DNA from: a virus
Virus record (IMG/VR): IMGVR_UViG_3300024324_000425
Span: 1 to 64,000 of that record
Length of the DNA: 64,000 nt
Strand: one strand, 5' to 3'
Positions 2,543-55,097 of this stretch are shown piece after piece (positions within the stretch are counted from its first letter, which is position 1; each line of letters begins with the position of its first letter). Position numbers and translations under genes: made by a program. The notes under the pieces are model-generated. The model did not search any database. It was not told the DNA's origin and worked only from the letters and a program-made list of their open reading frames with translations.

Positions 2543-2550
2543 TATAAATA
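2543..2550 (+). promoter_or_regulatory. T4-type late promoter TATAAATA heading the accessory island
   Basis: Exact consensus, intergenic, 5 nt before ATG 2556. Confidence 0.75.
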
Positions 2551-2555
2551 GTAGT

Positions 2556-3290
2556 ATGATTGGAATTATTGGTTATGGAATGGTGGGAAAGGCTGTCGAA
2601 CACGGCTTTCCTAATACAACTCACATTATATCGGACCCTGCGTATAACAAGGTAAGTATAGCTGACGTTTGCAATGCAAATCCCGATGCTATCTTTGTCG
2701 CAGTACCCACGCCTGATGATAACTCAAACTACGAAATACTTAAGACAGTATTAGATGTCATATTTGACTCTGAATATACAGGATTAGTAGTTGTTAAGTC
2801 AACCATATTACCCCACCACTTAATACCATACGATGTATTATATAACCCAGAGTTCTTATCGGAAAAAACAAACCTCGAAGACTTTATTAATCCTCCAATG
2901 TTAATTATTGGCGGAGATAAAGCACAAGAATTAGCCGACATATATACTAAGTACTCTATTGTAAAAACTGATAAAGTATTCCTTACCTCTATTGAAAATG
3001 CAAGTCATATTAAATATATGATGAATACGTTTTATGCAATGAAGGTAACCTTTATGAATGAGATGTATGATGTTGTAGGTAAGGACAATTGGAAAGAAGT
3101 AACAGGGATATTAAAGCAACACCCTTGGATGGGAACACATCACTTTGATGTTCCAGGCCATGATGGTAAGAGAGGCTTTGGTGGTGCATGTTTTCCAAAG
3201 GATACTAAAGCCTTAGCAAATGAATATGATATTAAATTATTAAAGACAACGCTTGAATTAAATGAAAACTTTATTAGTCGTCCTATCTGA
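2556..3290 (+). CDS. UDP-glucose/GDP-mannose 6-dehydrogenase family (short; lacks the C-terminal domain)
   Basis: GxGxxG (GYGMVG), AVPTP, KST, NPEFL and catalytic GFGGACFPKD. Confidence 0.85.
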   Translation: MIGIIGYGMVGKAVEHGFPNTTHIISDPAYNKVSIADVCNANPDAIFVAVPTPDDNSNYEILKTVLDVIFDSEYTGLVVVKSTILPHHLIPYDVLYNPEFLSEKTNLEDFINPPMLIIGGDKAQELADIYTKYSIVKTDKVFLTSIENASHIKYMMNTFYAMKVTFMNEMYDVVGKDNWKEVTGILKQHPWMGTHHFDVPGHDGKRGFGGACFPKDTKALANEYDIKLLKTTLELNENFISRPI

Positions 3291-4254
3291 ATTATGTAAC
3301 TTAGACTGCTCATATTGTGATATGGAGAAGACATCTAATAAGTCGATCGATGTTGATTTATTCTTAAAAGAGTTTGAGTTATTAAGAGAAACATATCCTG
3401 AAGAGATCATTAAAGTAGACTTCTTTGGGGGTGAGCCTCTTCTCCAATTAGACAAAGTCAAATATATTATTAATCATATCAATGATGATAATATCAAATA
3501 CTTTATGCCGACCAACGGTTTAAAGATGACTAAAAAATCCAAGCAGTATCTTCTTGATAATAATGTAGAGTTGTCATTAAGCTTTGACGGGCTATGGCAG
3601 GACCTCAATAGGAAGCAGTTAACCGGTAAAGGAACCTTACAGCATTACTTAGAAAAGAAAGACCTGTTTAAAGGCATGAAGTGCCATACAATGATTAGCA
3701 CAGGCAACTATAATTTATTAGAAAATCATCTGTTTATTCTAAATGAATTTGGTATCGTGCCAGACATGACCCTCGTTAGGGATAGAGGTATATGGGACAT
3801 AGAATCTGTAACTGCTTTGAATAAAGGAATACAAGAGTTATTCGACTGGTACAGAGAAAATCCAAGTGAACCAATGCCATTCCTAATTCTATTCTATCTT
3901 AGACATTTCTTATTATATGAAAGTAAGAAGTATGTAGTTGAATCATGCGGTGCGGGCGTAGATCTGTTCTCATTCTCTGAAGATAAGGTTGTCCCTTGTA
4001 ATAGATTTAAAGATGACTTGGTTGCCACTAACAATATAACATCATATGTACACACGAGTGCGTGTAACACATGCTCTGTAAAGAACTATTGCAAGAAGGG
4101 TTGTTTATATGAGCAGATAAAGAATGAAGGTCCAATAGTCGACATATGTACCATATATAAATATATCTATAAAGCAATAGCGATTCTCGTAAAAGACTTA
4201 CGCGACAACAAAGACTTTAAAATGATTATAATGGAAGAGTTGAATAATGAATAG
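3262..4254 (+). CDS. Radical SAM/SPASM maturase 1
   Basis: CNLDCSYC, FFGGEP, SFDG; C-terminal C...PC...CxxCx5Cx3C...C SPASM motif. Confidence 0.9.
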   Translation: MKTLLVVLSELCNLDCSYCDMEKTSNKSIDVDLFLKEFELLRETYPEEIIKVDFFGGEPLLQLDKVKYIINHINDDNIKYFMPTNGLKMTKKSKQYLLDNNVELSLSFDGLWQDLNRKQLTGKGTLQHYLEKKDLFKGMKCHTMISTGNYNLLENHLFILNEFGIVPDMTLVRDRGIWDIESVTALNKGIQELFDWYRENPSEPMPFLILFYLRHFLLYESKKYVVESCGAGVDLFSFSEDKVVPCNRFKDDLVATNNITSYVHTSACNTCSVKNYCKKGCLYEQIKNEGPIVDICTIYKYIYKAIAILVKDLRDNKDFKMIIMEELNNE

Positions 4255-4465
4255 TATTGAAAATATAAATCAATCGATGTATAAGGCAAGCACTCATTTG
4301 ATTGAAGCCGCAAAGTACCTATCAGACACAGGATTCAAAGATGAAAGCATTTCTTTAATGTCTTTAGCCGATAAGCTATTAGATGTTATTGTACCTGAAC
4401 CAGAGAAGATTACTGAAGAGAAGATGAATAATATTATGGATGAGATTATAAATTATGGCAATTAA
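4247..4465 (+). CDS. Small helical hypothetical protein
   Basis: 72-aa ORF overlapping both flanking rSAM genes. Confidence 0.6.
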   Translation: MNSIENINQSMYKASTHLIEAAKYLSDTGFKDESISLMSLADKLLDVIVPEPEKITEEKMNNIMDEIINYGN

Positions 4466-5570
4466 AAACCAGTTTACACTTGAGATAACAACTACAGCTT
4501 TATGTAACCTTGATTGCACGTATTGCTTCGAAGGATTAAAGACCGATAAACAAAAGTTAGATGAAAAGGTTGATGTACTAAAATTAAGGATTCAAGAGTT
4601 GCTTGATTCCGAATGGTTTAATGACAAATATGACGAGCTTAACTTATCATTTTGGGGTGGTGAACCTACATTAAACTTTAAACTTGTTACAGAGATTATC
4701 CAAGCATATCAAGATAATCCAAAGGTAAGTTACCATATATACACTAATGCTTATGATCGTAATAGATTAAATAAGATTATTGATAATGTCGATACATCTA
4801 ACTTGCATATTCAAGTGTCGTACGACGGCAAAGATATTAATGATGTATTCCGTGTACTTAAAACCGGTAAAACAACCTCTGATAAAGTTGTAGAGAATAT
4901 TAAATACTTAAGCGATCGAGGTATATCAACATCGATGAAAGCTACTATGCCATTAACAGCAATGGGATCTTTATATTCATCTTGGAAAGACCATGAAAGG
5001 TTATATAAAGAATTGCCTAATGTTCGTGTAGCATACGCCCCGACCATTGACTATGTATCGGATATTGATATTAATGGATTGCCAGATCTAATAGATAGCT
5101 TTAAGCATGGTATGATGAAGATTGCTAAAGAAGAGATTGAATTCCATAAAGAACACAGTCACTTCTTATGTACTTGGTTTACGGAGAACGATGCAAAGAC
5201 CCATTGCTCATCTGGTGTAAACATGCACGCTATAGACGTTGATGGTAATTCTTATGCATGTCACGGGTCATTATATTCTCCTAACAAAGATGAGATGAAA
5301 GGTGGACATATAGACGATGATAGTTTTATAAATAATATTATAAAAATGAGTGATTCTTTAAGAGAACCAATCCAAGAGGTATCAGATATATGTAATGGTT
5401 GCGTAGCAACTACATGTATGATATGTCCGGTAATTTCTCTAGATAACTCGAAGAAAGATAATTTTAACGATAAGTGGACTGATCGTTGGGTCAACAACAT
5501 GTGTGGATTCTTTAAAGCATTTGGTGAGATTGATAGATCTGTTCAGTATTATATAAACAAGAGGAATTAG
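4455..5570 (+). CDS. Radical SAM/SPASM maturase 2
   Basis: CNLDCTYC, FWGGEP, SYDG; C-terminal CSSG...DGNSYAC...CNGCVATTCMIC...C. Confidence 0.9.
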   Translation: MAIKNQFTLEITTTALCNLDCTYCFEGLKTDKQKLDEKVDVLKLRIQELLDSEWFNDKYDELNLSFWGGEPTLNFKLVTEIIQAYQDNPKVSYHIYTNAYDRNRLNKIIDNVDTSNLHIQVSYDGKDINDVFRVLKTGKTTSDKVVENIKYLSDRGISTSMKATMPLTAMGSLYSSWKDHERLYKELPNVRVAYAPTIDYVSDIDINGLPDLIDSFKHGMMKIAKEEIEFHKEHSHFLCTWFTENDAKTHCSSGVNMHAIDVDGNSYACHGSLYSPNKDEMKGGHIDDDSFINNIIKMSDSLREPIQEVSDICNGCVATTCMICPVISLDNSKKDNFNDKWTDRWVNNMCGFFKAFGEIDRSVQYYINKRN

Positions 5571-5571
5571 T

Positions 5572-6240
5572 ATGGCCCAACCAGCAAATCATTGTTCAAA
5601 TCACGGCACCGGCACAAGCACGTGTTCTAATCATAGGTCATCATGTTCTACTAATCGAACACTATCTTTAAGTAGCGATTATGGCGTGCCTGGTCATGTC
5701 ATTAGAGCATCGGATATAGAGAACGTTAGAACTAGAATTAGAGATGAAATGTCTCGATGGAACTTACACTCAAATTACAATTATGCATTAAGATCGCCAA
5801 GCTCAATATCAAGTGGCTCATCAATCATTGATAATCACGCAGAAGACTTAGTACAAATGGTTAATGATATGAACGGCGGTGGAACATTTGGAGATCTTAA
5901 TGGTGATCTTATTGAAGATAGTCATTGGGATATTATCAGAGATCGATATAATGTAATTAGACAAAACTGTATCTGTAACTCGGATTGTGCATGTAATAAT
6001 GTTTGTGCTTGCCATAATGATTGTGCATGTAACTATTCAGATGAAAGATTGAAAAGAGATATCGAATTTATTGAAGAAAGAAATGGTCTTAACATATACA
6101 ACTTTAAATACTTATGGGATGATACTATTAAAACCGGTGTTATGGCACAAGAGATTCTTAAAAGTAAATGGAAAGATGCTGTACATCAAGATAGAAAGGG
6201 TTATTATATGGTAGACTATTCAATGCTACCTAAATTTTAA
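5572..6240 (+). CDS. Cys-repeat protein fused to a peptidase S74 intramolecular chaperone (putative rSAM substrate / virion fibre)
   Basis: AGAGG RBS; (CxC[NH]xx)x4 immediately before SDERLK (Ser156/Lys161); GVMAQE and VDYS S74 motifs. Confidence 0.85.
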   Translation: MAQPANHCSNHGTGTSTCSNHRSSCSTNRTLSLSSDYGVPGHVIRASDIENVRTRIRDEMSRWNLHSNYNYALRSPSSISSGSSIIDNHAEDLVQMVNDMNGGGTFGDLNGDLIEDSHWDIIRDRYNVIRQNCICNSDCACNNVCACHNDCACNYSDERLKRDIEFIEERNGLNIYNFKYLWDDTIKTGVMAQEILKSKWKDAVHQDRKGYYMVDYSMLPKF

Positions 6241-6254
6241 AACGGAGTTATATT

Positions 6255-6860
6255 ATGATATATGAATTAGCATTAGTGATTGATAAAGGTACTTTTTGGG
6301 AAGTAACCAATGTCACAAAGAATACATTAGACAACTTAGCAAATCGAAATGAGACGATGCTCAAGTTATCTTATATAGCTTATAAACAGATCAAAGCTGG
6401 ATTAAGTGAAAATAAGATAGTACAAATCACTAAGGAAATGATGACCGATGAGGTTATGCCTGGTGAAGTACGGTATATTACTATCGGTGAAGAAGATGAT
6501 ATAGTGGATCATCGTAATGCAGCCTTGGCTAAAGTAAGAATGCTAGCAAATCCAACATTAGCTTCTATTGCCGGTTTAACTATGTACGGATTCATTGTAC
6601 TTAACAATGATTTGGTTAATGCAGGATATGCTATTACCAACGACAATAGAGAAGAGAAATACTTATCTATTTTAGAGACCGGTGATGAAGAGCTTATTAA
6701 TAAATTAGAAGATTACTTAAACTATAAAGATGAGATTGAACGTGTGGCTCAACTAGAACGCAAGTTCTCGAAGTACGTAACTGAAATAAATAATGCACCA
6801 CTTGAGGATATAGAAGGTATTCAAAATAAATTCTTAGAAGACTTCTATGCGACATATTGA
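6255..6860 (+). CDS. Hypothetical protein
   Basis: GGAG RBS; 201-aa ORF coupled to the downstream gene. Confidence 0.7.
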   Translation: MIYELALVIDKGTFWEVTNVTKNTLDNLANRNETMLKLSYIAYKQIKAGLSENKIVQITKEMMTDEVMPGEVRYITIGEEDDIVDHRNAALAKVRMLANPTLASIAGLTMYGFIVLNNDLVNAGYAITNDNREEKYLSILETGDEELINKLEDYLNYKDEIERVAQLERKFSKYVTEINNAPLEDIEGIQNKFLEDFYATY

Positions 6861-7606
6861 TTGGTGTTGTCTATAAATGGCAGGTCCACAATAAACTAAA
6901 CGGATCGGTATTTTATGCATTCGAACATGCAGCATATCTAAACTGCCCTTTATACCTTGTTAATATTAATGATAAAGACTTAGCTCTTCTTAAGAGTATC
7001 TTTGACGCTAAATATAATATTCCTCTTGATATTATAACTCCTATAAGTTTAATCGATTTATATAAAATTAAACTTGATAAAACACTAATACTCGATATTA
7101 GAACTTTCACTGAGGTAAAAGAATTTCTATCTAATGATATCCATGTATTCTCAAACGAAGCACATGATATGTTCAGATATAAGAATGATCGAACAGTAAC
7201 ATACTACGGCTCATACAAATATCAGAACTATGATATATTTAACTATCTCAAATTAAACTTTAATATATTCCAAGAGTCTACTGGTGGAGAAGGTACATTC
7301 GTGTCAGGTCTAAGAGTGCCCAATTCAATGCCGAATCTTAATAAGCCATTACTTAAAAAACATGGTAGCGGGCAAGGGGATATATTTAACAAGATTGATA
7401 CTATACATTATATACATACACTACTTGATACGAACAATAGGATTATACCTGAAGCATTTTTCCACAATAAAAAAATTGTGATTGATGATCAGAACCCAAC
7501 ATTAATAGATTCAATAACATTTAGATATAATGATATAATGGAAAATGGTTTAGGTAACTATACATTAAGCAAGGAGGATAAACTTGTCAAAGCTATTACA
7601 ACTTGA
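6857..7606 (+). CDS. Putative divergent GT-B glycosyltransferase-like protein
   Basis: TTG start; C-terminal NRIIPEAFFHNKKIVI resembles the GT4 EA...GKPV motif; similar to the next ORF. Confidence 0.4.
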   Translation: MIGVVYKWQVHNKLNGSVFYAFEHAAYLNCPLYLVNINDKDLALLKSIFDAKYNIPLDIITPISLIDLYKIKLDKTLILDIRTFTEVKEFLSNDIHVFSNEAHDMFRYKNDRTVTYYGSYKYQNYDIFNYLKLNFNIFQESTGGEGTFVSGLRVPNSMPNLNKPLLKKHGSGQGDIFNKIDTIHYIHTLLDTNNRIIPEAFFHNKKIVIDDQNPTLIDSITFRYNDIMENGLGNYTLSKEDKLVKAITT

Positions 7607-8426
7607 TCCTAAGATAGACTTATGGTTGTCATATACATGGAGTAACAATGATCATGGTATTTGTGGTCATGTCTATGAGGTGATTGATTATTATATGATA
7701 CTCAAAGATCACTTCAACGTTGGTATATTATTCGCTGAGAAGTTTGAATTAGACCTATCTAAGTATGATTTTGAATTAGATGAAAGTGTTATTACGTACT
7801 GTGACAAACCTTCAGTAGTTAAAGGGACTAACATATTATTCGTTGATGGTGGTGTAAACAGTAATATGAATAAAACTCTGTTGTTTGATAATATATTCTA
7901 TTTTGCCTGTGGTAATAAAGAAGTTAAAGATAATGATAAAGATAACGTATACATATTGCAAGATGATAGGGTGTATGATCCAGTTAAAAAGAATGGTATT
8001 AACTATAAGAAAAGAATTTTGCTTGATAGACTAAATCCGGTTGTCGTACATGATGATAGACCGATGGTATATACCACCACTAACTGTAGAGAAACAGACT
8101 TAACAGGATTACCAAGTAACACATTAGTTGTATCTGATAAAGAGTATGAAGAATTCGAATGTGTTAAACCACCGGTTAAAGATATATTCGAAAAGTTTCA
8201 TACATTCATATATACACCCGTTGCGCGCAAGTGGGACTGCTCGCCAAGATTTATCGTAGAGTGCGAACACCACGGCAAAGAAGTTGAGTACCATAACATC
8301 GATTATTGGGAAGAAGATAAAGGGTTATACTGGAGAAAGTGGGATATTGATAACGATTTTGATTCGCTGTATTTAAAAGAAGATGATGAAATAATATGTA
8401 TAATCAAGCAAGTACTTTCAAATTAA
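7584..8426 (+). CDS. Putative divergent GT-B glycosyltransferase-like protein (paralog of 6857)
   Basis: AAGGAGG RBS and TTG start; DCSPRFIVECEHHGKEV aligns with the upstream paralog motif. Confidence 0.4.
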   Translation: MSKLLQLDPKIDLWLSYTWSNNDHGICGHVYEVIDYYMILKDHFNVGILFAEKFELDLSKYDFELDESVITYCDKPSVVKGTNILFVDGGVNSNMNKTLLFDNIFYFACGNKEVKDNDKDNVYILQDDRVYDPVKKNGINYKKRILLDRLNPVVVHDDRPMVYTTTNCRETDLTGLPSNTLVVSDKEYEEFECVKPPVKDIFEKFHTFIYTPVARKWDCSPRFIVECEHHGKEVEYHNIDYWEEDKGLYWRKWDIDNDFDSLYLKEDDEIICIIKQVLSN

Positions 8427-9367
8427 TACCTAGAGATGCGCCTATTAATAATAGGGCTAAGTTGGACACTGGTACCCATTGCAACTATAAATGTGACTTC
8501 TGTTATTATAAGACTCAATTAGATGTAGTAACAAATTTAGATGTAATCAAAGAACGAATCGATTACTTAGTTGAATGTGGTATAACTGAAGTGGATCTTA
8601 GTGGTGGTGAATCATCTATTCATAAAGAATGGTTTGATATATTAGACTATTGTACTGATAAAGGATTGTACATATCATGTTTAAGTAATGGATTTAAGTT
8701 CGCTAAGAAGGAATTCATTCAGAAGAGCTATAACCATGGATTAAGAGAGATTCTATTCTCTGTACACGGGTATGACACCACATCTCATGACATGTTGGTG
8801 GGTCGCAAGCATGCATATAAGAATATCATTAAAGCTATTGGGAATGCACAAGAGCTTGGTATGGTTGTCCGAGTTAATTGTACAATAACAGAATCCAATT
8901 ATAAACACTTAGATGAGTTCGTTCTAATGATGAATGAGCTTAAACCATTACAAGTAAACTTTCTCCCTTTAAACTATTGGGACGATGCTAAACAACAAAG
9001 TGCATTGAACTATAAAGAGGTCTCTCCGTATATCCATAAGGCTATTGATACATTAAACATTGAAGAGATTAACGTACGGTATATTCCATTCTGTTTTATG
9101 AAGGGATATGAGAAGCATGTTGTCGGATACTTCCAACATATATATGATGTTAAAGACTGGAACATTGCAGTGTATGATCATAGTATTAATCCTGAGGAAT
9201 ATAAGAAAGATAGAGTTAAAGCGATGTTTGATGCGGCCAAAAGAAACAGAATAAATACATATATTAAAAAGAAAGAGTGCTTGCAATGTAAGTACTACTT
9301 CGTATGTGATGGTATAGAGCATGATCAAGAAGTATTTCCAGAAGATGGCGAGAAGGTGTTATTATGA
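8396..9367 (+). CDS. Radical SAM enzyme 3
   Basis: CNYKCDFC, LSGGE, SVHG; C-terminal CLQCKYYFVCDG. Confidence 0.9.
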   Translation: MYNQASTFKLIPRDAPINNRAKLDTGTHCNYKCDFCYYKTQLDVVTNLDVIKERIDYLVECGITEVDLSGGESSIHKEWFDILDYCTDKGLYISCLSNGFKFAKKEFIQKSYNHGLREILFSVHGYDTTSHDMLVGRKHAYKNIIKAIGNAQELGMVVRVNCTITESNYKHLDEFVLMMNELKPLQVNFLPLNYWDDAKQQSALNYKEVSPYIHKAIDTLNIEEINVRYIPFCFMKGYEKHVVGYFQHIYDVKDWNIAVYDHSINPEEYKKDRVKAMFDAAKRNRINTYIKKKECLQCKYYFVCDGIEHDQEVFPEDGEKVLL

Positions 9368-10371
9368 ATAACATAAAACAGGTATTGAATCCTACAGACA
9401 TTGAATCTATAGAGCTAGGTTTAATTAATAAATGTGTGTTAGACTGTAGACTATGTTTAAGACAAGAGGCTATAACAGACAATTTGGAAAAAGATGTAGC
9501 AATTGACTTAGGTACTTTATCGAAATTTATGGATCAACTGCCTAATCTCAAACAGGTAGATTTAGTAGGTTCTATATCAGAACCAACCTTGCATAAACAA
9601 TTTTATGGTATCATAAAGTATATCAAGGGACGTAACTTAAAGATTAGACTATCAACTAACGGCAATACATTTTCGTTAAATTGGTGGGCTAATCTAGGTA
9701 AGTTAATGGATGAACGTGATATAGTAAGGTTTGCTGTTGATGGATCTACACAAGAAATACATGCTAAATACAGAGTCAATGGTAAACTGTCTAAGGTGTT
9801 AGCTTGTCACACCGCGTTTAAAAGTACATCACGGAGTATTACCGTGTTACAAAATATACTATTCGCATATAATATAGATGATCAAGATAATGTGCGGGCG
9901 TTATTTATGAAAGAAAACTTTGATATATGTGAATTTACACATACAGGTGGATTTGATTTCACAGGAACACCCGCCTTGATAAAGGATAATATACTCCCGG
10001 TTAAAGACTTATTATCAAGTTATAATAAACTCACCCGAGATCATACAGTTAATATGAAATTAAACTGCGCGGCCTTTATGGGGAAGTATGTATATCTAAA
10101 TCACTTGGGTTGTGTTCTACCATGTGATGATATGGAAGAGACTACATTCATCTCGCCCAGTAATAACATAACTATATATAATAATACTATAGATGAATGC
10201 TTCGCTCATGTAAATTCCATAATATCTAAAAGGTTTTTCTGCAACACATGTTCTGAGTGTTGTGGCCAGCTCCATCATGATATACGTAAAGAATACCCAA
10301 TTATACAATATAATAGAAATGGCGATTCAGAATCTTTGTATAAATTTAGAGAAGTGATGAATATAATATGA
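9364..10371 (+). CDS. Radical SAM enzyme 4 (twitch-type)
   Basis: CVLDCRLC, SEPTL, STNG, VDG; C-terminal C...GCVLPC...CNTCSECC. Confidence 0.85.
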   Translation: MNNIKQVLNPTDIESIELGLINKCVLDCRLCLRQEAITDNLEKDVAIDLGTLSKFMDQLPNLKQVDLVGSISEPTLHKQFYGIIKYIKGRNLKIRLSTNGNTFSLNWWANLGKLMDERDIVRFAVDGSTQEIHAKYRVNGKLSKVLACHTAFKSTSRSITVLQNILFAYNIDDQDNVRALFMKENFDICEFTHTGGFDFTGTPALIKDNILPVKDLLSSYNKLTRDHTVNMKLNCAAFMGKYVYLNHLGCVLPCDDMEETTFISPSNNITIYNNTIDECFAHVNSIISKRFFCNTCSECCGQLHHDIRKEYPIIQYNRNGDSESLYKFREVMNII

Positions 10372-12436: not shown

Positions 12437-12873
12437 TATATTTAATATCGCGTATCGATGAGCAAGCACATTCCCATAATATTGCTATAGCTAACATAGT
12501 ATCGGAGGTGTATAATCATAAAGTGTTCGTGCCGCATTTGCATAACCCATATAATATACCCCACAATAAGATGGAATATAAGACGTTTAAAACTGACCTC
12601 ACTAAGATGAAAGAATCATCTATGGGCGTTATAGCATTGCCTGTAGGCAACGATTGTTCCGGAGAAATTGGATGGTTCGCTGGAAATAATAAAGCGGTTA
12701 TTGCTATTATCAAGAGCACCGAGTATATGTCTAGTGCTGACCAGATAGAATCACTTTCATCTATGTGGATGATAAAGGGATTTATTGATGAGGTTGTGGT
12801 ATTTAACGAACATGACCAATTGGTATTACTCAATGATCCTATACTTAAGGATAAGGTAACATTATGGTTATAG
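12433..12873 (+). CDS. Nucleoside 2-deoxyribosyltransferase / MilB-like nucleotide N-glycosidase
   Basis: IYL...FVPH...D...GEIGW...K motif pattern of the NDT/Rcl fold. Confidence 0.6.
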   Translation: MIYLISRIDEQAHSHNIAIANIVSEVYNHKVFVPHLHNPYNIPHNKMEYKTFKTDLTKMKESSMGVIALPVGNDCSGEIGWFAGNNKAVIAIIKSTEYMSSADQIESLSSMWMIKGFIDEVVVFNEHDQLVLLNDPILKDKVTLWL

Positions 12874-13571
12874 AGGTCAATGAGTATTTACTAAACCGCT
12901 TAAGCGAAGTAAACGTATTAGATATAGAAATAGAGGGGGATTTGGTTGAACCCACTTACTTTTTTTATATATCATCAACTACGTATAATAAGCTTGTTGA
13001 TGAATTCTTTCCAAGTGCTGATTTATTACAAGGCTTGGTTAAAACCTATAATGGGTGCTTATTTAAAATTGAACTAAAAGACAATAAAGTTGAAATCTTA
13101 ATTGGGTTTGAATTAGGAGATCATACTTTAACTATGGTATTTGATGATGAGTATAAATTAGTTGATATTAAATTTTATACATTGGTTGAAGAAGTGGGTA
13201 TATACAAGGTATGTTATAAGATAAAGCTTTCAAGTATTAGTTCGTTATACTACAATTATGAAGTCAATGGTATATGGACGAGTTATGCACCACCTATTAG
13301 TATGTACACCGAGGTATTTTCGGCAACAAAGTATACTATAGCCGATAAATTAAGACACCTGCGTAAAGAGTATACTAAACATAAGGACGTACCAAGTGTA
13401 CACTTTGATGATGTTATGGTTATATCAAACATTAAAGATTACCAAGATGTGTTAACATATGCTGGATCAAATTTAAACATTAAGCCAACTATAAATAAAT
13501 TACTACAGCTGTTAATTATAGAGGAGTATAATGAGTTTATCAAACAACATAGCATTAATAACAACTATTGA
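12864..13571 (+). CDS. Hypothetical protein
   Basis: 235-aa ORF overlapping both neighbours. Confidence 0.6.
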   Translation: MVIEVNEYLLNRLSEVNVLDIEIEGDLVEPTYFFYISSTTYNKLVDEFFPSADLLQGLVKTYNGCLFKIELKDNKVEILIGFELGDHTLTMVFDDEYKLVDIKFYTLVEEVGIYKVCYKIKLSSISSLYYNYEVNGIWTSYAPPISMYTEVFSATKYTIADKLRHLRKEYTKHKDVPSVHFDDVMVISNIKDYQDVLTYAGSNLNIKPTINKLLQLLIIEEYNEFIKQHSINNNY

Positions 13572-14412
13572 AGGTGACCTTAAGGATATCAATACCTTAA
13601 AGCAGGGATATATTAGATGTTACGAACAAGAGGCAGTTCAGTGTTTTACTGAGTGGCGAAAGAATGCTGGCTGGTTGAAAGATGTTCCTATATATTGTAT
13701 TGCGTTAACCAAGAACACGATATCACAAGAAACAAAAGATATCTTTAAAGAACTTAATGTTAATTACATTGAAAAATTCTATCCTGAAACTGAACTTTAT
13801 CAAAACGGATATTGGAATATACCACTATCTGGTAAATATTTTGAAGAAGAACTTAAAGAAGACATCTTAATTAAAATTGATTTAGACATGTATCTTATTA
13901 AAGAACTGTCTAAAGAGATGTTTAATATTGAGAGAGGCACAACAACAGTTGGTAGGTATGACCCATTGTCGGCAAAACATAATACCAATAAGTTAACGTT
14001 TCCAGAAAGATATGGTCAACCATGGGATACTGGTTTAGTGATTACACACAGGGCCACTGGTTTTTTTGGAAAGTTTTATAACAAATTAAAACAAATTACA
14101 TCTGAATTTGAAGATGGCACCTTTGAGAGTTTATACGGATTACATATTAAAGAACATGACAACGATCATGGTGTTGATTATGGTGCTATCGAAGAGTTTG
14201 CGGTGTCTATCATGTACACGGATGAAGATGCCAAATTAATTCCACAATTTAAATACAACTTAGGCGAGTTTTACGCACCGATAGACATATACACAGATGA
14301 AGAAGTTCAAGAGATATACTTCTTCCATGAACATATACCACTTCAGGAGATTGGCTATGATAAATTCAAGACACGTATTGAATACTTCCATCGCATTAAT
14401 CACGGTAATTGA
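13531..14412 (+). CDS. GT-A (GT8-like) glycosyltransferase
   Basis: GAGGAG RBS; KIDLDM DxD motif, DTGLV, FFHEH; TATAAATA at 13490. Confidence 0.55.
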   Translation: MSLSNNIALITTIEGDLKDINTLKQGYIRCYEQEAVQCFTEWRKNAGWLKDVPIYCIALTKNTISQETKDIFKELNVNYIEKFYPETELYQNGYWNIPLSGKYFEEELKEDILIKIDLDMYLIKELSKEMFNIERGTTTVGRYDPLSAKHNTNKLTFPERYGQPWDTGLVITHRATGFFGKFYNKLKQITSEFEDGTFESLYGLHIKEHDNDHGVDYGAIEEFAVSIMYTDEDAKLIPQFKYNLGEFYAPIDIYTDEEVQEIYFFHEHIPLQEIGYDKFKTRIEYFHRINHGN

Positions 14413-15190
14413 ATCTGATCTAATTAATATAGATTCTAATAATACACATAACACTAGGCTATTTGAAAGAGAAGCTATATTGTCGTTTAGTCATTGGCGT
14501 AACAATGCTGGAATATATAAAGATATTCCCATATATGCAGTGTGTATTACAAAAAATACTATATCAAAAGATACTAAAGATAAGTTTAAAGAATTAAATG
14601 TAACTTATATTGAAAGTTATCAAGCGGTCACAGAGTCGTTTGATTGTGGGTTTTATAATAAACCACTAGGATGTAAGGTGCTTGAAGAGACCTTAACAGA
14701 AGATATATTAATTCATATAGACTTGGACATGTATTTAATGAGAGAGCCTACCATACCTTTCAAAAATGCATGCATGGTATATGATACACACCAACTACAT
14801 AAAGAACGTATACATAAAAACGGTGAGGTGATAGACACATATAACACATGTTATATGGTTACTAAACGCAAAGATAAGATATTTTCTAAGTGGTGGGATA
14901 AACTAAAACAACTTGATGAGGATTACATATTAGATCGTAGTGAGTTTGATAAACTATATGATAACCTAGAGTATAGAAAATTAGAAGAGTTGTCGTTTGA
15001 TTTATTATCATTAGACATAGAGATTTACAATATACCAAACTCTTTGTTTGGGGAGACATATACCCCATTAGCTAGTATGAATAAATTAGAATTGAATAAT
15101 ATCACCTTTCACCACTATCACATATATACATCATTAGTTGAGTACAACTGGTTTGCTGGATATAGGGAATACACAAAATGTTTTCTTTAA
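14357..15190 (+). CDS. GT-A glycosyltransferase, tandem paralog of 13531
   Basis: AGGAGA before ATG 14357; shares IALIT.IE.D, WR.NAG..KD.PIY, TKNTIS and IDLDMYL with 13531. Confidence 0.55.
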   Translation: MINSRHVLNTSIALITVIESDLINIDSNNTHNTRLFEREAILSFSHWRNNAGIYKDIPIYAVCITKNTISKDTKDKFKELNVTYIESYQAVTESFDCGFYNKPLGCKVLEETLTEDILIHIDLDMYLMREPTIPFKNACMVYDTHQLHKERIHKNGEVIDTYNTCYMVTKRKDKIFSKWWDKLKQLDEDYILDRSEFDKLYDNLEYRKLEELSFDLLSLDIEIYNIPNSLFGETYTPLASMNKLELNNITFHHYHIYTSLVEYNWFAGYREYTKCFL

Positions 15191-15942
15191 AAATCCCTAA
15201 AATGATGTGTGTGCCAATAACAGACAAGTGTCATTTGCGATGTGGGTTCTGTTATAATAGTAATGATTATTTCAAAACAGCTAAGCACATGGATATTGAT
15301 GAGTTTAAGGATATTGTTGATTGGCTCATATCAGAAGGAATATCTTATATTGATATAACCCCTGCGGTGGGAGAAGCTTTGTTAATCCCAAACCTTCATG
15401 AATTTCTGGACTATTTAGATAACTCGAGTATTGATAAGTATTTATTAATTACATCACTGGCTGTTAAAGATATATCAGTATTAAAGGATCGTCATAAAAT
15501 AGATATAGAGGTTAGTTTATATGGGGAAAACGCAGAACAATATATAAAAACCACTGGGAGGGATGTGTTTGATTTGGTCTTACCCAACATTAAAGAATTG
15601 ACTAAAGATGGTATTACTATATTAAAACGCTTTAAAGAGCCTATAACATCAACAGATCTTCGACTAATAACGAAATTCGATAATGTGAAGTTAGTTGATT
15701 ATAGTGATGATCGCGGATTAGAGTATGCATCAAAAACTGGGGAAGTACGAGAGTGTGTGTTCATGAAAGAACCTTTGGTTACTAAGCGGGGAATTAGTTT
15801 GTGTTGTAAGGATCATAAGATTGAGGACTTGGTTATTGGTCAGGTTGGTGAAAGTCTAAAAGATATATATAATAACATATCAATAGATGATGTCAAGTGT
15901 TCTATTGAATGTGATTGGTTTATAGATGCATCCACAGATTGA
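15178..15942 (+). CDS. Radical SAM enzyme 6 (short, twitch-like)
   Basis: CHLRCGFC, GEA, SLYG; C-terminal C...LCC...C..C. Confidence 0.8.
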   Translation: MFSLKIPKMMCVPITDKCHLRCGFCYNSNDYFKTAKHMDIDEFKDIVDWLISEGISYIDITPAVGEALLIPNLHEFLDYLDNSSIDKYLLITSLAVKDISVLKDRHKIDIEVSLYGENAEQYIKTTGRDVFDLVLPNIKELTKDGITILKRFKEPITSTDLRLITKFDNVKLVDYSDDRGLEYASKTGEVRECVFMKEPLVTKRGISLCCKDHKIEDLVIGQVGESLKDIYNNISIDDVKCSIECDWFIDASTD

Positions 15943-16384
15943 TCCAACTGAACATGATCTTATAATAAGATTCTTTGGAATTGATCCAACCTCCAATATA
16001 CTTTCTGGAAATCTTAATCTGGGAACAAGCGATTTTAGAAATATAATAGACTTCTATAGGTTTGAATATAAAGATAGAGAAGCTGCGTTTTGGGATGTTG
16101 TATATCCAAAATCGTTGTTATATCCTAATATAGAAATACCTATTACAATGACACGTGTGGCATTAGATTGGGTTGATTATGTTACAAAGGTTGATGTATC
16201 ATATACTATTGATGATAATAAACTTATAATGAATACCTCCCCACAAGGTGATCGGTATAATAAAATGTTACAACTGATATGTTGTATGATATTTGTATCA
16301 GATTTTAATAATATGAGTGATGATAAAAAATATATAGACACGAGTGCGGCTTGGCTGATTATAATGAAGATAGCAAATGAATAA
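15926..16384 (+). CDS. Hypothetical protein
   Basis: 152-aa ORF coupled to both neighbours. Confidence 0.6.
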   Translation: MHPQIDPTEHDLIIRFFGIDPTSNILSGNLNLGTSDFRNIIDFYRFEYKDREAAFWDVVYPKSLLYPNIEIPITMTRVALDWVDYVTKVDVSYTIDDNKLIMNTSPQGDRYNKMLQLICCMIFVSDFNNMSDDKKYIDTSAAWLIIMKIANE

Positions 16385-16982
16385 CCATGAATTTATAAAG
16401 ATGTTTGAGGATGAGTTGAGTACCTACACCGGTGCACCTTATGTAGTCCTTACAGACTCATGTACTAATGCGGTGTTCTTAATGTTAAAGTATCTAGATA
16501 TACAAACCACTATTAGTATTCCAAATCATACGTACATCTCTATCCCCCAACAGATTATACATGCTGGAGGTTGCGTCGAGTGGAATACTGAAGAATGGAT
16601 AGGTTCTTATAATTTAAAGAATACTCCTATCTGGGATAGTGCTGTCGGGTTCCATAAAGATATGTACATTAAAGATCAATTCATGTGTTTATCATTTCAA
16701 CAAAAGAAAGCATTACCCATTGGAAAAGGAGGAGCTATTCTATTATCCAAAAAAGAAGATTATGAAATTCTTAAACGAATGGCATGGGATGGAAGAGACG
16801 CTTCTGTATCTGTTGAAAGGGATATAAATAATATTATACTAGGATATCATATGAACATGACCCCTAATGATGCGGTTAATGGATTATTACTACTTAATCA
16901 ATTTACCGCGGTAAAGGATAATCAGGGATGTTGGTTAGACTACCCTAACTTAGACGTAACAAAAGTAAATGGAGAAACATAA
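16377..16982 (+). CDS. DegT/DnrJ/EryC1/StrS PLP aminotransferase (short form)
   Basis: FEDEL, SCTNA, DSA, SFQQKKALPIGKGG (PLP Lys), GYHMNM. Confidence 0.85.
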   Translation: MNNHEFIKMFEDELSTYTGAPYVVLTDSCTNAVFLMLKYLDIQTTISIPNHTYISIPQQIIHAGGCVEWNTEEWIGSYNLKNTPIWDSAVGFHKDMYIKDQFMCLSFQQKKALPIGKGGAILLSKKEDYEILKRMAWDGRDASVSVERDINNIILGYHMNMTPNDAVNGLLLLNQFTAVKDNQGCWLDYPNLDVTKVNGET

Positions 16983-17648
16983 ATGGATAAAAATCCAAAT
17001 CGAACGTGTTGTGATGATGGCAAGTGCTATCGCCATGATGTAATTAATAAGCTGGAGAGTGAATTTAATATTATTGAAGCACTTGATGAACTAGAATGGG
17101 GATATACTCACACGTTTGTATTCATCGAAGATAAGCTATACTATTACAAACCTGAACTTATATCACAAATCGCGGCGGATGCTGCTATATGGGATGAGTC
17201 TTATACAGGAGACTTTAAAGCTTCGGTTGATGAGATATCATCATTGTTAAATCAAGAAGTAATATTGACTGATGTTTATAGTAAATTAGATGAGTATATT
17301 AGAAGTGGTATTAACGGGATGCCAACATTCATTGAAGAGACTGAGAGTTTCTTAGTATTTGCGGATCCGAAGGCTGAGGTGATGCCTGTTGATGAGTGGA
17401 AAAATAATCTATTGAATATTAAAAATAGTTTCAGTGATGATATTAATCCATTGTTAGAAGTGTTTGGTGATAATGAGCTTTATATAAAGGGTAACCAAGT
17501 ATATTGCTATGATATACTAGCCTTTGAAAATAACACTAATGGTAAGTTAGGAGTATTTAGTGAGGCTGATGATAAAATAGTGTTTAGTGCATTTGGCGAG
17601 TTAGATCCAACACAAGCTAAAGTCGTGGATCTGCTTAAAGAGTTATAA
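16983..17648 (+). CDS. Hypothetical acidic protein with N-terminal CCxxxxC
   Basis: GGAGA RBS; 221-aa ORF. Confidence 0.6.
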   Translation: MDKNPNRTCCDDGKCYRHDVINKLESEFNIIEALDELEWGYTHTFVFIEDKLYYYKPELISQIAADAAIWDESYTGDFKASVDEISSLLNQEVILTDVYSKLDEYIRSGINGMPTFIEETESFLVFADPKAEVMPVDEWKNNLLNIKNSFSDDINPLLEVFGDNELYIKGNQVYCYDILAFENNTNGKLGVFSEADDKIVFSAFGELDPTQAKVVDLLKEL

Positions 17649-18533
17649 ATGAATATATTATTATTAGGCGGTGCCGGTTTTATTGGTACCCATTTAGCCA
17701 AACGGTTAAAAGGTGAAGGACATAACATAACAATCATTGATTCGTTGAGCACATCAGTATCTCCGGATTATGGTGTTAACTTTATTAAAGGCGATGTGGC
17801 TACAATGGATTTAGATATCCAATTAATGGAAGCTGACTTAGTATATTACTTGGCAGGATCTGTTGGAGTAGAATACATTGATAAGAATCCATCAAGCACT
17901 CTATTCAATAACATTGACTTAATGACTAAGTTAATCCCTGCCTTTGAAAGAGCACAAACAAAAGTAATATTCTCATCCACTTCTGAAGTATATGGTGAAG
18001 GACCTTTCAACGAAGACAACGCATTAAGTATTGGTTCCCCTAATAAATTAAGATGGGGTTATGCTTGTGCTAAGTTAATGACTGAGTTCATGATAAAGGC
18101 TTCTACATTCCCATCGGTTATTGTAAGATTCTTTAATGTAGTGGGACCTGGTCAATCCGCTGATTATGGTATGGTCCTACCTAGAATGGTAGCGGCGGCA
18201 AAGACCGGACAAAACTTAATTATATATGGCGATGGCAAACAAGTTAGATCATTCTGTCACATCAAAGATGCTATTGATGCTCTTATATTATTACAAGATG
18301 CTGAGGGTATATACAATGTTGGTAATGATACCCCCTCAACAATGAATGAGTTAGCAACGGCTGTATTAAGAGAAATAGCCACAACATCTAATATGAAGTA
18401 TCGACCTTATGAGAAAGATTTCTCTAAAGAACATGGTGATATATACTATAGGGTACCTGATATTACTAAGCTTAAAGAGCTCGGGTATGAACCTAAATAT
18501 GATTTGAAAGATATTATAAGAGATATGTTATGA
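17649..18533 (+). CDS. NAD-dependent nucleotide-sugar epimerase/dehydratase (SDR)
   Basis: GGAGFIG, SSTSEVYG, YACAK, RFFNVVGP, GDGKQVRSF. Confidence 0.9.
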   Translation: MNILLLGGAGFIGTHLAKRLKGEGHNITIIDSLSTSVSPDYGVNFIKGDVATMDLDIQLMEADLVYYLAGSVGVEYIDKNPSSTLFNNIDLMTKLIPAFERAQTKVIFSSTSEVYGEGPFNEDNALSIGSPNKLRWGYACAKLMTEFMIKASTFPSVIVRFFNVVGPGQSADYGMVLPRMVAAAKTGQNLIIYGDGKQVRSFCHIKDAIDALILLQDAEGIYNVGNDTPSTMNELATAVLREIATTSNMKYRPYEKDFSKEHGDIYYRVPDITKLKELGYEPKYDLKDIIRDML

Positions 18534-19177
18534 AGATAGTTTTTATATTTGCTCATCCAGATGATGAAGCGTATGGACCTGCTGGTACTATACACAAGTT
18601 AGCTAACGCTGGCCATAGTGTATCGGTGGTTGTTATGTGTAAAGGTAATAGGCCTGGTGCTGAAGAAGTATGTGATGATAGAATGGAAGCCTTTAAAAAG
18701 AGTTGTAGTTCATTAGGGGCTACAGGAACTATGTTCTTAAACAACGATTGTAAGTTAAAGTATGGAGAAACTCTTAAACAAATAGAAGGAGTTATTAACG
18801 ATCTTCAACCAGAAGTAGTGTATACTCATAATATATCTGACATTCATAAAGATCATAGGTTAGTTGCAGAGTGTGTAATAGTAGCTACTAGGCCGAAGCC
18901 TGAGTCATCTATTAAAGAATTATATATGTGCGAGATCCCAGCATCTACTGATTGGGCATTTGGTCAATTAGGTGAGGCATTCCAACCTAATGTTTATAAA
19001 GATGTATCAATGGAAATATATAAGAAGCAACAGGTGATGGGATATTATGCAACAGAAGTATATGAATATCCAGATGCTAGATCAATTGAAAGTATGGAAA
19101 CTTTAGCGATGTATAGAGGTAAGACTGTTGGCATGCATAGAGCTGAAGCGTTTAAGCAGGTATATCGACTCGACTAG
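18530..19177 (+). CDS. PIG-L/LmbE family N-deacetylase
   Basis: AHPDDE, DIHKDH, AEAF. Confidence 0.9.
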   Translation: MKIVFIFAHPDDEAYGPAGTIHKLANAGHSVSVVVMCKGNRPGAEEVCDDRMEAFKKSCSSLGATGTMFLNNDCKLKYGETLKQIEGVINDLQPEVVYTHNISDIHKDHRLVAECVIVATRPKPESSIKELYMCEIPASTDWAFGQLGEAFQPNVYKDVSMEIYKKQQVMGYYATEVYEYPDARSIESMETLAMYRGKTVGMHRAEAFKQVYRLD

Positions 19178-19664
19178 ATCCATAGAAGTCAGTGAAACCA
19201 TAAGGCTTTAAAAGACCTGCATATAAACCATCTAGTTCTTCGTTGTAAGGAAAACAAAATGATGTTGGTATATAATCTAATTCTTTCTTAAACCACGCTA
19301 GCATAAGTTCTGTATCTTCTTTGATATGTTTAACCTTATCAACTAACTTAGGGATTTTAGATACATCTTTATGATAATGGGAATGGCCACCTATCTCTAT
19401 ACCCATATTGATTATCTCTTTGATTTGATCAATAGTCATATAGTTTTCAGTATTACCTTTAAACGCCTTTACATGAGCACTACGACAATCAATAAACTCT
19501 TCTGATTGTTTACCCCTACATATTATATTAGACGAGATAAAGAATATCTTATCATTAGGTAAGTCTTTACCGTATAGATACTGAGAGTATAGACCATCAT
19601 CAAAGGTACACAATCCCTTTGGTATATTAGTGTCTTCTTTCATTTCGTGTATCATTAATACCAT
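19152..19664 (-). CDS. Polysaccharide deacetylase (NodB/CE4-like)
   Basis: TFDDG, EIGGHSHYH, FCFPY; the only credible minus-strand gene in the window. Confidence 0.8.
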   Translation of the reverse strand: MVLMIHEMKEDTNIPKGLCTFDDGLYSQYLYGKDLPNDKIFFISSNIICRGKQSEEFIDCRSAHVKAFKGNTENYMTIDQIKEIINMGIEIGGHSHYHKDVSKIPKLVDKVKHIKEDTELMLAWFKKELDYIPTSFCFPYNEELDGLYAGLLKPYGFTDFYGSSRVDIPA

Positions 19665-54813: not shown

Positions 54814-55097
54814 TGTTTGTAGTACAAAATATAAAGTTTCCAACAGTCTATACACATGTAGACAGCACACAAAAGATTGCTATTTATCATAATAATAAAG
54901 ATGGCAAATACACCACCCGGTTTTATGTTAACAATTATCAACCTAAAGATAAGCGATATCCACAACGAAGCTTCGGCAAGTCTTTCAAAACAATGGGTGA
55001 ATCTTTAGATTTTGGTGAAAAGATATGTAGTCACTTATCTAAATTTGACGCGAATGATGAACGTGCACTTAAACGAATTTATGAGGAAACAAAATGA
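54813..55097 (+). CDS. Hypothetical protein
   Basis: Coupled ORF, 94 aa. Confidence 0.6.
   Translation: MFVVQNIKFPTVYTHVDSTQKIAIYHNNKDGKYTTRFYVNNYQPKDKRYPQRSFGKSFKTMGESLDFGEKICSHLSKFDANDERALKRIYEETK

Follow-up and report, generated by a model that had tools for sequence, protein, structure and literature searches.

What does a phage do with a block of genes that surrounds one cysteine-rich protein with six radical S-adenosylmethionine (SAM) enzymes and a set of sugar-modifying enzymes? The question is raised by positions 2,543 to 19,664 of the stretch of DNA analyzed here (the window), which is the first 64 kb (64,000 nucleotides) of the 79.6-kb IMG/VR record IMGVR_UViG_3300024324_000425 (CheckV completeness, 44%). 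We call this block the island and number its genes g01 to g23; all are on the + strand except g23. Our answer, to which we give about an even chance, is that the island is a layered phage-protein modification system built around the Cys-repeat protein encoded by g05. The phages probably staple a protein of their own particle, and perhaps they glycosylate it. The idea at the core of a preliminary description of this DNA, namely, that a Cys-repeat virion part with an S74 domain is the substrate of SPASM radical SAM enzymes, is strongly supported by conserved gene linkage and by an ortholog found in the virion of phage IBB_35.

The product of g05 (5572 to 6240) is a 222-amino-acid Cys-repeat protein with a C-terminal Peptidase_S74 domain, and it has 85 metagenomic homologs. 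Conservation was read from an alignment of 23 of these, in which the most conserved parts are an N-terminal Cys motif and a C-terminal Cys array. The N-terminal Cys/His motif, MACSGxHCxNHGTGTTTCxxHRxSCxTNR (5572 to 5658), is near-invariant. The array consists of four CxCNxx hexads at residues 133 to 155 (5968 to 6036) with a DNA period of 18 nucleotides; C133, C135, C139, C141, C145, C147, C151, C153, N136, D138, N142, and the last residue, Y155, are invariant. The S74 domain starts immediately afterward with S156-DERL-K161 (6037 to 6237; Pfam match at residues 156 to 197) and reaches 25.7 bits, above the cut-off of 22 (PF13884). S156 and K161 are near-invariant, as is the motif SDxRLK among the aligned homologs. 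The Ser-x4-Lys spacing of S156 and K161 is that of Ser911/Lys916 in endoNF. From its family, g05 is presumed to cleave itself before Ser156. Thus, from the initial picture of a self-cleaving Cys-rich protein, the Cys arrays and the S74 domain stood, and the cleavage is presumed.

Next to g05 are the genes for two radical SAM/SPASM maturase-like proteins, g02 (3262 to 4254; Pfam Radical_SAM, 3.7e-11; motif CNLDCSYC) and, directly upstream of g05, g04 (4455 to 5570; Pfam, 8.5e-12). The count of six radical SAM enzymes given earlier was confirmed: g02, g04, g09, g10, g11, and g17 all carry CxxxCxxC, and five of them (g02, g04, g09, g11, and g17) pass the Pfam Radical_SAM threshold (PF04055, 29.5 bits), while g10 is assigned only through PHROG 21308, NCBIfam radical SAM families (to 4e-14), and its paralogy to g11. 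The assignment of two of the six to the SPASM group also held: along their full length, g02 and g04 align with SPASM maturase families, and they have the Cys signature of the auxiliary clusters. Our criterion was a C-terminal signature of seven cysteines, CX9-15GX4C ... CX2CX5CX3C ... C, for two auxiliary 4Fe-4S clusters. In g02, CNTCSVKNYCKKGC is an exact CX2CX5CX3C. In g04, 10 cysteines are invariant across 10 homologs (C17, C21, C24, and seven further), and the signature reads C251-x12-G-x4-C269, C313-x2-C316-x4-C321-x2-C324, C350, with a spacing slightly off canonical. Both proteins are therefore predicted SPASM radical SAM enzymes. The best NCBIfam match of g02 is PapB (5.7e-24, full-length coverage). 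For g04, the NCBIfam matches are PapB (2.9e-26), QhpD (3.4e-21), TIGR04463 (2.8e-16), anSME (8e-16), and the CXXX-repeat family (4.4e-14), and the PDB matches include CteB (9e-10) and anSME (E value of 0.002). These matches suggest that g02 and g04 would, at best, work like PapB.

We determined whether the enzymes and the Cys-repeat protein stay together in other phages. An IMG/VR scan with the alignment of 23 g05 homologs returned 12 loci, and in all 12, g02 and g04 were upstream and g06, g08, and g09 downstream of the Cys-repeat gene; g01 was present in 11 of the 12 and g03 and g07 in 10 each. A second subtype, S74 proteins with heptad arrays, (CxCxCNY)n, surfaced as weak matches in the g05 search. 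Its arrays hold 2 to 28 copies, with or without an S74 domain. A search with an alignment of six heptad S74 proteins yielded 40 IMG/VR loci, of which 33 have a g02/g04-like radical SAM gene (25 to 34% identity) within 8 kb of the heptad gene; many also carry g01, g06, g08, and g09, at low identity. The same radical SAM enzymes were found in five of six metagenome-assembled genome (MAG) contigs with a heptad protein. Apart from the radical SAM enzymes, the most constant partner is g06 (6255 to 6860), a conserved 201-amino-acid protein of PHROG 25260 with no assigned function, which was present in 12/12 g05-type and 27/40 heptad-type loci.

The reverse test gave a matching result. Within 8 kb of a near-full-length g04 relative, an open reading frame (ORF) with a strict CxC array was found in 31 of 41 IMG/VR loci, mostly beginning right after the radical SAM gene. 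In eight of the 10 remaining loci, the next ORF encodes a variant Cys-rich protein, one of them with CHSN tetrads. In other phage DNA, some 180 kb in all, the strict CxC pattern did not occur, and it was found beside only 1 of 27 loci that match just part of g04. Across both search directions, the pairing was found in about 80 distinct viral contigs and several MAG contigs, and it persists at 25 to 35% enzyme identity and across hexads, heptads, and CHSN tetrads. By these sequence counts, which ignore kinship among loci and are not phylogenetically independent, the linkage of radical SAM and Cys-repeat genes far exceeds chance. A lack of conserved linkage had been named beforehand as a finding that would speak against the proposal; instead, the pair is kept in about 80 viral contigs.

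Several loci extend the range of these arrangements. In the Erwinia jumbo phage phiEaH2 (L073, 4937 to 5143), a 68-amino-acid ORF with a CxxxC-repeat core and the ending CGGSCSWTCSGGCSHGAGNR lies directly before the first of two radical SAM genes and two genes upstream of the g04 relative, and this set looks like a classical precursor-maturase set for a ribosomally made peptide that is modified after translation (RiPP). At L102 (9136 to 9636), the variant partner of the g04-like enzyme is a 167-amino-acid protein in which CHS[ND] tetrads (CHSNCHSNCHSDCHSN...) make up a long array, a third repeat period at the same genomic position. At L089 (9077 to 10059), the Cys-repeat ORF stops shortly past SDERLKRNIRSI and a separate 91-amino-acid ORF resembles the remaining S74-type domain, so this Cys-repeat gene may be split or frameshifted. 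The heptad arrays (CP220 gp140 at L019, 3161 to 4765, and L033 to L072) are encoded by 21-nucleotide tandem DNA repeats. Because the copy number of these repeats ranges from 2 to 28 between loci, array length may vary quickly. No Pfam family covers the CxC repeats.

The array itself offers a reading other than stapling. The CxCxxxCxC spacing resembles the metal-thiolate motifs of plant metallothionein domains, and the cysteines might simply bind metal. They would then line the three-fold axis of a trimeric fiber as a ladder of metal-thiolate or iron-sulfur sites, comparable to the His-x-His metal sites at the tip of T4 gp37, and the radical SAM enzymes would act on sugars or take metal or Fe-S from g05. 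The repeats lie directly before the trimerizing S74 domain, and the island encodes six Fe-S enzymes. In an AlphaFold2 (AF2) monomer model of g05, the helical core (residues 30 to 130) and the S74 domain are confident (S74 predicted local distance difference test [pLDDT] score, 80 to 93) and both Cys regions are below 50, a disorder that would fit a need for metal or for trimer formation in folding; a PDB fold search with this model gave no match. In addition, CrpA, a Cys-rich protein known to be cross-linked, is itself suspected of metal binding (PMC13692751). However, a metal ladder gives no reason for a PapB/CteB-like SPASM enzyme to be kept immediately upstream in about 80 divergent loci with varied repeat periods, and many family members have no S74 domain. 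Given these points, we consider a metal ladder in place of staples quite unlikely. Metal binding and stapling can also coexist.

Evidence for the location of g05 comes from Campylobacter phages. The g05 hexad-family hidden Markov model (HMM) found nothing in phage CP220, which at first spoke against the proposal; the link to CP220 gp140 emerged only through the heptad family, whose loci include the phages CP21, CPt10, and CP220 (3/40). The gp140 protein has 534 amino acids, with annotated 21-nucleotide repeats, seven heptads, and further CxC[ND]xx units, and its gene is 2.2 kb upstream of that of gp136, the g04 homolog (30% identity, E of 4e-49). Gene 3-9 of phage IBB_35 is a syntenic, same-length ortholog of gp140, and its product was among 38 virion proteins detected by mass spectrometry, with 2.6% coverage (PMC3322345, Table S2). 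Homologs of g06, the UDP-glucose dehydrogenase (UGDH), and the radical SAM enzymes were absent from that virion proteome (PMC3322345), which is a weak negative. In the window, fiber-type genes directly precede the block that contains g05. Because an ortholog is in the IBB_35 virion, the neighboring genes are fiber genes, and the protein has a fiber-chaperone domain, a virion location of g05 is supported, not proven.

Stapling of g05 by g02 and g04 would follow the example of CrpC, the closest tested precedent. This SPASM radical SAM enzyme of Methanococcus voltae introduces ranthionine cross-links into CrpA, a Cys-rich protein of 29 kDa (Dieter et al. 2026, PMC13692751). There, as here, a SPASM enzyme gene adjoins the gene for a full-size Cys-rich protein with its cysteines in short repeated motifs, and g04 matches the CrpC-type family, TIGR04463 (2.8e-16). 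However, g04 is not a member of that family and has no RiPP recognition element (RRE), and the system here has a fiber-type phage candidate with an S74 domain, two maturase paralogs, and a set of sugar enzymes. The families that score best for g02 and g04, over their full length, are those of PapB/PapA (freyrasin), CteB/CteA (SCIFF), and the CXXX-repeat family (TIGR04115), and as in ranthipeptides and sactipeptides, a maturase gene has as its neighbor a gene whose product carries Cys motifs at regular intervals and Asp/Asn/Thr acceptors. Unlike in those systems, the scores fail to reach the curated cut-offs, the "precursor" has 150 to 540 amino acids and a folded helical domain, and in place of leader/RRE logic, an exporter, or a protease there is a C-terminal intramolecular chaperone-protease. 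That domain and the neighboring tail fiber genes recall S74 fibers and spikes (the K1F/endoNF endosialidase, T5 pb1, and the GA-1 appendage), from which g05 differs in that its mature part has only 155 amino acids and that many members of its family are without S74. We know of no described S74 protein with an invariant eight-Cys array like that of g05.

From gene families, folds, linkage, and the virion presence of one ortholog, we infer the chemical steps, the cleavage, the glycan target, and the timing as follows. In the first layer (g02, g03, g04, g05, and probably g06), g02 and g04 would act on g05 as RiPP maturases do on Cys-rich precursors. They would probably form thioether links of the ranthionine or sactionine type from the CxC cysteines to nearby acceptors of the Asn/Asp/Tyr type in the (CxCNxx)4 array, with further links possibly made in the N-terminal three-Cys motif. 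The S74 domain would trimerize g05 and then cut itself off before Ser156. The product would be a stapled, trimeric, fiber-type protein of 155 residues that ends up in the virion. The small gene g03 (4247 to 4465), between the two SPASM enzyme genes, encodes an acidic protein of 72 amino acids that has no family match and no similarity to the similarly placed small protein gp022 of CP220; it was ruled out as a peptide precursor because it has no Cys.

A second layer would add sugar. It would comprise g01, g07, g08, g09, g21, g22, and g23, and in the lineage of this phage it always accompanies the first. Its central enzyme, g08 (7584 to 8426; 280 amino acids), is by its AF2 model (pLDDT, 88) a compact GT-B-fold glycosyltransferase (GT)-like protein. 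The top 50 structure matches of the model are all GT-B, including BshA and MshA; it aligns to BshA, MshA, and PimA with Z of 12.5 to 15.2, best to PimA (2gej; VIA Z of 15.2, rmsd of 3.4 A, 251 residues). Against the ESM Atlas, g08 gave only a GT lead (score, 0.90) and g06 no usable match, and profiles of g06, g07, and g08 found nothing among PDB sequences. The product of g07 (6857 to 7606) is a distant paralog of g08 by hhalign (probability 95%, E of 3e-8) and thus GT-B-like by inference; Pfam and profile searches gave it no direct family match. A second tandem pair, which belongs to the cassette of g10 to g20 described below, consists of g15 (13531 to 14412; GT-A-like, DLDMY motif; PHROG 23758, 1.4e-65) and its paralog g16 (14297 to 15190, with a true start probably downstream of 14297; PHROG 23758, 1e-56), whose CP220 homologs are annotated as nucleotide-diphospho-sugar transferases. 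Both GT-like pairs of the preliminary description were thereby recovered, g07/g08 by fold and hhalign as GT-B and g15/g16 as GT-A-like paralogs.

The accessory enzymes of the second layer fit this picture to different degrees. As had been proposed, g21 (17649 to 18533) is a short-chain dehydrogenase/reductase (SDR) nucleotide-sugar epimerase/dehydratase (Pfam Epimerase, 3.3e-45), and g22 (18530 to 19177) is a PIG-L/LmbE-family de-N-acetylase (Pfam, 7e-21; 75.5 bits against the PF02585 cut-off of 28.2). The nearest NCBIfam equivalog of g22 is BshB1 (5e-14), for which it is below the cut-off (52.5 versus 182.5 bits). The convergent gene at the end of the island, g23 (19152 to 19664, - strand), passes as a CE4 polysaccharide deacetylase-like protein (25.1 bits against the Pfam cut-off of 23.1). 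The call of g01 (2556 to 3290) as a UDP-glucose dehydrogenase was sustained in part: this short protein of 244 amino acids, UDP-glucose/GDP-mannose dehydrogenase-like, has the catalytic Cys motif GFGGACFPKD and, of the three domains of such enzymes, the central one (Pfam UDPG_MGDP_dh, 5e-13) and part of the N-terminal NAD-binding one (6e-10), but it lacks the C-terminal UDP-binding domain and its NCBIfam score is below the equivalog level (NDP-sugDHase, TIGR03026, 7.6e-31; 107 bits versus 189.8). Its homologs in related loci are 48 to 71% identical. The radical SAM enzyme g09 (8396 to 9367; Pfam, 9.4e-18; PHROG 27238, 8e-92) has BlsE as its best PDB match (1.3e-11), which is unspecific. Together, a GT-B enzyme and PIG-L would transfer an N-acetyl-hexosamine and then remove the acetyl group, most likely on the g05 protein, or on another cytoplasmic target. 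This two-step logic of a GT4 enzyme and a PIG-L protein is that of BshA/BshB in bacillithiol, MshA/MshB in mycothiol, and BtrM/BtrD in aminoglycoside synthesis. The likeness of g08 and g22 to those enzymes is at the level of fold and family only; g08 has 280 amino acids versus about 370, and the island is without the Cys-ligase or inositol enzymes of those systems. By this analogy, glycosylation of the Cys-repeat protein is plausible.

No island protein has a membrane segment, and the chemistry is therefore cytoplasmic; for the same reason, a surface-polysaccharide pathway was judged unlikely. A cytoplasmic set would also suit DNA hypermodification, in which the GTs and sugar enzymes would elaborate glucosyl-hydroxymethylcytosine and the Cys protein would be unrelated. 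At 55094 to 56952, the window has adjacent genes for a T4-type dCMP hydroxymethylase (PDB 1b49, E of 1.6e-70) and a DNA alpha-glucosyltransferase (PDB 1xv5, E of 2.8e-86), and the phage DNA therefore probably carries glucosyl-hydroxymethylcytosine. The g08 model also aligns to the T4 alpha-glucosyltransferase (AGT; Z of 12.3). However, g08 is closer to small-molecule and lipid GT4 enzymes than to AGT, and the relatives G002 and G003, which have the whole island, encode a canonical ThyA, whereas a hydroxymethylase is missing from the sequence of theirs that was examined. CP220 DNA was reported to contain only 7-amido-7-deazaguanine (PMC10516641). The island set thus tracks no single DNA modification, and we regard this explanation as very improbable. 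A 7-deazaguanine hypothesis was rejected because searches of G000 and four relatives found neither QueC nor TGT.

The remaining genes, g10 to g20, would make up a third layer, a swappable tailoring cassette that diversifies the sugar into amino or guanidino derivatives. It contains three radical SAM genes, namely, g10 (9364 to 10371; PHROG 21308, 5e-84; CVLDCRLC), its paralog g11 (10368 to 11354; Pfam, 2.6e-10), and g17 (15178 to 15942; Pfam, 4.5e-9). The amidinotransferase assignment of g12 (11339 to 12436) was upheld by full-length homology to solved members (PDB HsvA, 2.9e-48; StrB1, 7.4e-44, residues 4 to 363; also AGAT and SxtG) and by the active-site Cys motif GGGIHCSTLD near the C terminus; an IMG/VR single-sequence scan with g12 gave nothing. 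For g19 (16377 to 16982), the DegT/DnrJ/EryC1-like aminotransferase call stood on its Pfam match (4.7e-15, above the cut-off), but not at full length, since the protein has 201 amino acids and covers part of a 360-position profile; homologs in relatives have 199 to 204 amino acids. The claim of a nucleoside 2-deoxyribosyltransferase (NDT)-like hydrolase was not sustained: g13 (12433 to 12873) is below the Pfam cut-off (PF05014, 19.1 versus 28.8 bits), is absent from relatives, and has PHROG 12607 (1.8e-5) as its only support. No family match or assigned function was found for g14 (12864 to 13571), which is specific to this phage and has no homolog in relatives, for g18 (15926 to 16384), a homolog of CP220 gp090, or for g20 (16983 to 17648), which has counterparts of 22 to 32% identity in some relatives. 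An NCBIfam search returned nothing for g05, g06, g07, g13, g14, g18, and g20.

Comparison of relatives set the cassette apart from the rest. In seven extended relatives, g01, g02, g04, g05, g06, g08, g09, the SDR, PIG-L, and CE4 genes are constant, and the variable middle (g10/g11, g12, g15/g16, g17, g19, and g20) is present in four and absent from G004 and G011. In the relative G001, island proteins are 42 to 59% identical and core genes 60 to 78%, and the upstream fiber genes are unrelated. At L016/G011 (IMGVR_UViG_3300024258_000612), the fiber/holin flanks are 86 to 96% identical and PIG-L 80%, yet the g02, g04, and g05 block is only 30 to 38% identical, and a CE4-like gene is in place of g07. 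Because the flanks of G011 are near-identical and these three genes are not, we conclude that cassettes are exchanged, and the sequence of G011 gives evidence of a recent cassette replacement.

CP220 shows the same genes in another arrangement. In CP220 and CPt10 (Firehammervirus), a radical SAM/amidinotransferase cluster was described as an "interchangeable" module of unknown function, with the guess that it boosts host metabolism (Timms et al. 2010, PMC2853527). We found g10 to g20 to be homologous to CP220 gp080 to gp090, in the same type of order: g10 is 36 to 41% identical to gp080, gp083, and gp084, g11 50% to gp084, g12 57% to gp086, g15 41% to gp088, g16 35 to 36% to gp088 and gp089, g17 35% to gp087, and g18 36% to gp090. 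Outside the cassette, g01 corresponds to gp019 (30% identity), g02 to gp023, g06 to gp015 (HMM E of 1.5e-23), g08 to gp184 (HMM E of 4e-46) and two weaker copies, g09 to gp163 (49% identity), and the SDR, PIG-L, and CE4 genes to gp158, gp157, and gp156 (g23, 40% identity). CP220 thus has at least 14 island families, but they are scattered there, whereas in the window they are consolidated beside the Cys-repeat gene.

Because the cassette is separable from the Cys protein, the main rival explanation is that two functions are juxtaposed, the radical SAM/Cys-repeat unit and a separate pathway of the sugar, amidino, and additional radical SAM enzymes. The latter would lead to a soluble amino- or guanidino-glycoside, a small molecule of the aminocyclitol or peptidyl-nucleoside type, or an uncommon nucleotide sugar, for use on another target, such as other virion proteins or host molecules. 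The enzyme set is indeed like that of aminoglycoside or peptidyl-nucleoside clusters, with StrB1/HsvA-like, BtrD/BshB-like, and BshA/MshA-like proteins, DegT, UGDH, a weak NDT, and a radical SAM enzyme that matches BlsE. The CP220 cassette has no neighboring Cys protein, and G004 and G011 have g05 without the cassette. In the cyanophage S-SCSM2R, a small DegT/radical SAM/amidinotransferase set was called antibiotic-synthesis genes by its authors (PMC12801897). However, the matches to antibiotic enzymes here are at the family level only, below equivalog cut-offs, and the island has no exporter, resistance gene, or membrane protein. Furthermore, g01, g08, g09, and the SDR, PIG-L, and CE4 genes never part from g05 in this lineage, and in many heptad-type loci, g01, g06, g08, and g09 are present too, with low identity. 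We therefore regard a wholly separate pathway as unlikely. The view that all 21 to 23 genes form one pathway on the Cys protein, as first proposed, was not substantiated, with g10 to g20 missing from G004 and G011 and about 85 kb away in CP220.

Several observations weigh against the layered modification system that we favor. Co-location alone is not proof of an enzyme-substrate pair. The scores of g02 and g04 fall far short of the curated cut-off for each named maturase family: both fail the PapB membership cut-off (NF047865, 340 bits) with 84.9 and 92.5 bits, respectively, and g04 reaches 59.3 of the 525 bits for the CrpC-type TIGR04463, over profile positions 81 to 250 only, and 58 of the 349 bits for the anaerobic sulfatase maturase TIGR03942, in a full-length match (13 to 351 versus 7 to 344 of 363). 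Neither enzyme has a recognizable RRE domain, unlike CrpC, and in g04 there is no room for one because the radical SAM motif begins at residue 17. BtrN and NirJ-type families are among the NCBIfam matches, and sugars and cofactors are further substrates of SPASM/twitch radical SAM enzymes. Two relatives that retain g05 are without the cassette, and in CP220 its counterpart is about 85 kb from the Cys-repeat gene. The CP220 homologs (g01/g02, g06, g08, g09, the cassette, and SDR/PIG-L/CE4) occupy seven or more separate places, mostly far from gp140, and there is thus no need for the sugar enzymes to act on the Cys protein. The family can do without self-cleavage, since its short members have no S74 body. 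The virion support is one distant ortholog at 2.6% coverage, and g05 itself was found in no cultured phage searched.

The layout and expression of the island were examined as well. From 2556 to 19177, a block of about 17 kb, there are 22 abutting or overlapping + strand ORFs with a largest gap of 14 nucleotides (6240/6255), and the single convergent ORF, the predicted CE4 deacetylase of the preliminary description, ends the island; the abutting layout described before is correct, but the count of 21 genes is not. A T4-type late promoter had been read at the start of the island from the motif TATAAATA (2543 to 2550, + strand). The motif is present, but its function is doubtful: it is only 5 nucleotides ahead of the ATG at 2556, compared with about 27 to 29 nucleotides in clear cases such as phoH, and it is not enriched in the window (18 occurrences versus 13.2 +/- 3.9 expected). 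Because of this distance and lack of enrichment, late expression is unproven. A promoter and terminator scan inside the island gave nothing exceeding shuffled expectation. Contigs from RNA libraries (four libraries, three studies) span nearly the whole island and fit its transcription weakly, as DNA carry-over is possible; such contigs are unable to rank genes or give timing, and uncovered bins in single runs are meaningless.

The phage is a T4-like myovirus whose large terminase shares 65% identity with that of the Kyanoviridae phage C48C1 and about 46% with those of Prochlorococcus and Methylophilales myophages. Seawater metagenomes of 2016 to 2025 contain the phage in abundance, with the island near-verbatim in those of 2016, 2018, 2020, and 2025. 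A megablast of the island against cultured phages gave no match. The location between tail fiber/holin genes and phoH was borne out for PhoH, which is encoded downstream of the island, scores above its Pfam cut-off, and is at most 54% identical to that of any cultured phage, but the holin call is weak: the holin-like ORF at 1996 to 2427 has a weak PHROG match (E of 0.0016), yet a strong hydrophobic segment. Between it and g01 is a small unlisted ORF (2431 to 2541) with the hydrophobic tail ...VLAIISFYFGTGAAKA, which may belong to the lysis cluster and encode a small membrane protein. The 117-amino-acid ORF at 1636 to 1989 (PHROG 7759, no assigned function) has by far the greatest contig depth in the RNA libraries, with a peak of about 1800 at position 1974 versus tens or less over the island, and it may encode a small protein whose expression is very high.

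In the literature searched, we found no description of the enzyme/Cys-repeat pairing as phage-protein maturation and no paper with the heptad string or with S74 and radical SAM paired; the Campylobacter (PMC2853527) and cyanophage (PMC12801897) papers merely list such genes. A wider version of the layered system is possible, and we hold it tentatively: tailed phages from a number of lineages, among them aquatic Kyanoviridae-like phages and Campylobacter Firehammervirus, would build a virion fiber or whisker tipped with a ladder of enzyme-made thioether staples and coated with a variable amino- or guanidino-sugar from the swappable radical SAM cassette, a RiPP-plus-glycan "serotype" system with cassette exchange like that of O-antigen loci. 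A cultured and tractable stand-in is available in CP220 or IBB_35, with gp140 and gp136. If the modification of g05 is real, it would be the first RiPP-type radical chemistry on a structural protein of a virus and would extend the recent finding of whole-protein stapling by SPASM enzymes. It would also define a large, unannotated CxC-repeat protein family, for which there is no Pfam model and which we met in no paper, and give a function to many unexplained radical SAM genes in Campylobacter phages, which have been noted since 2010 and are of use in biocontrol.

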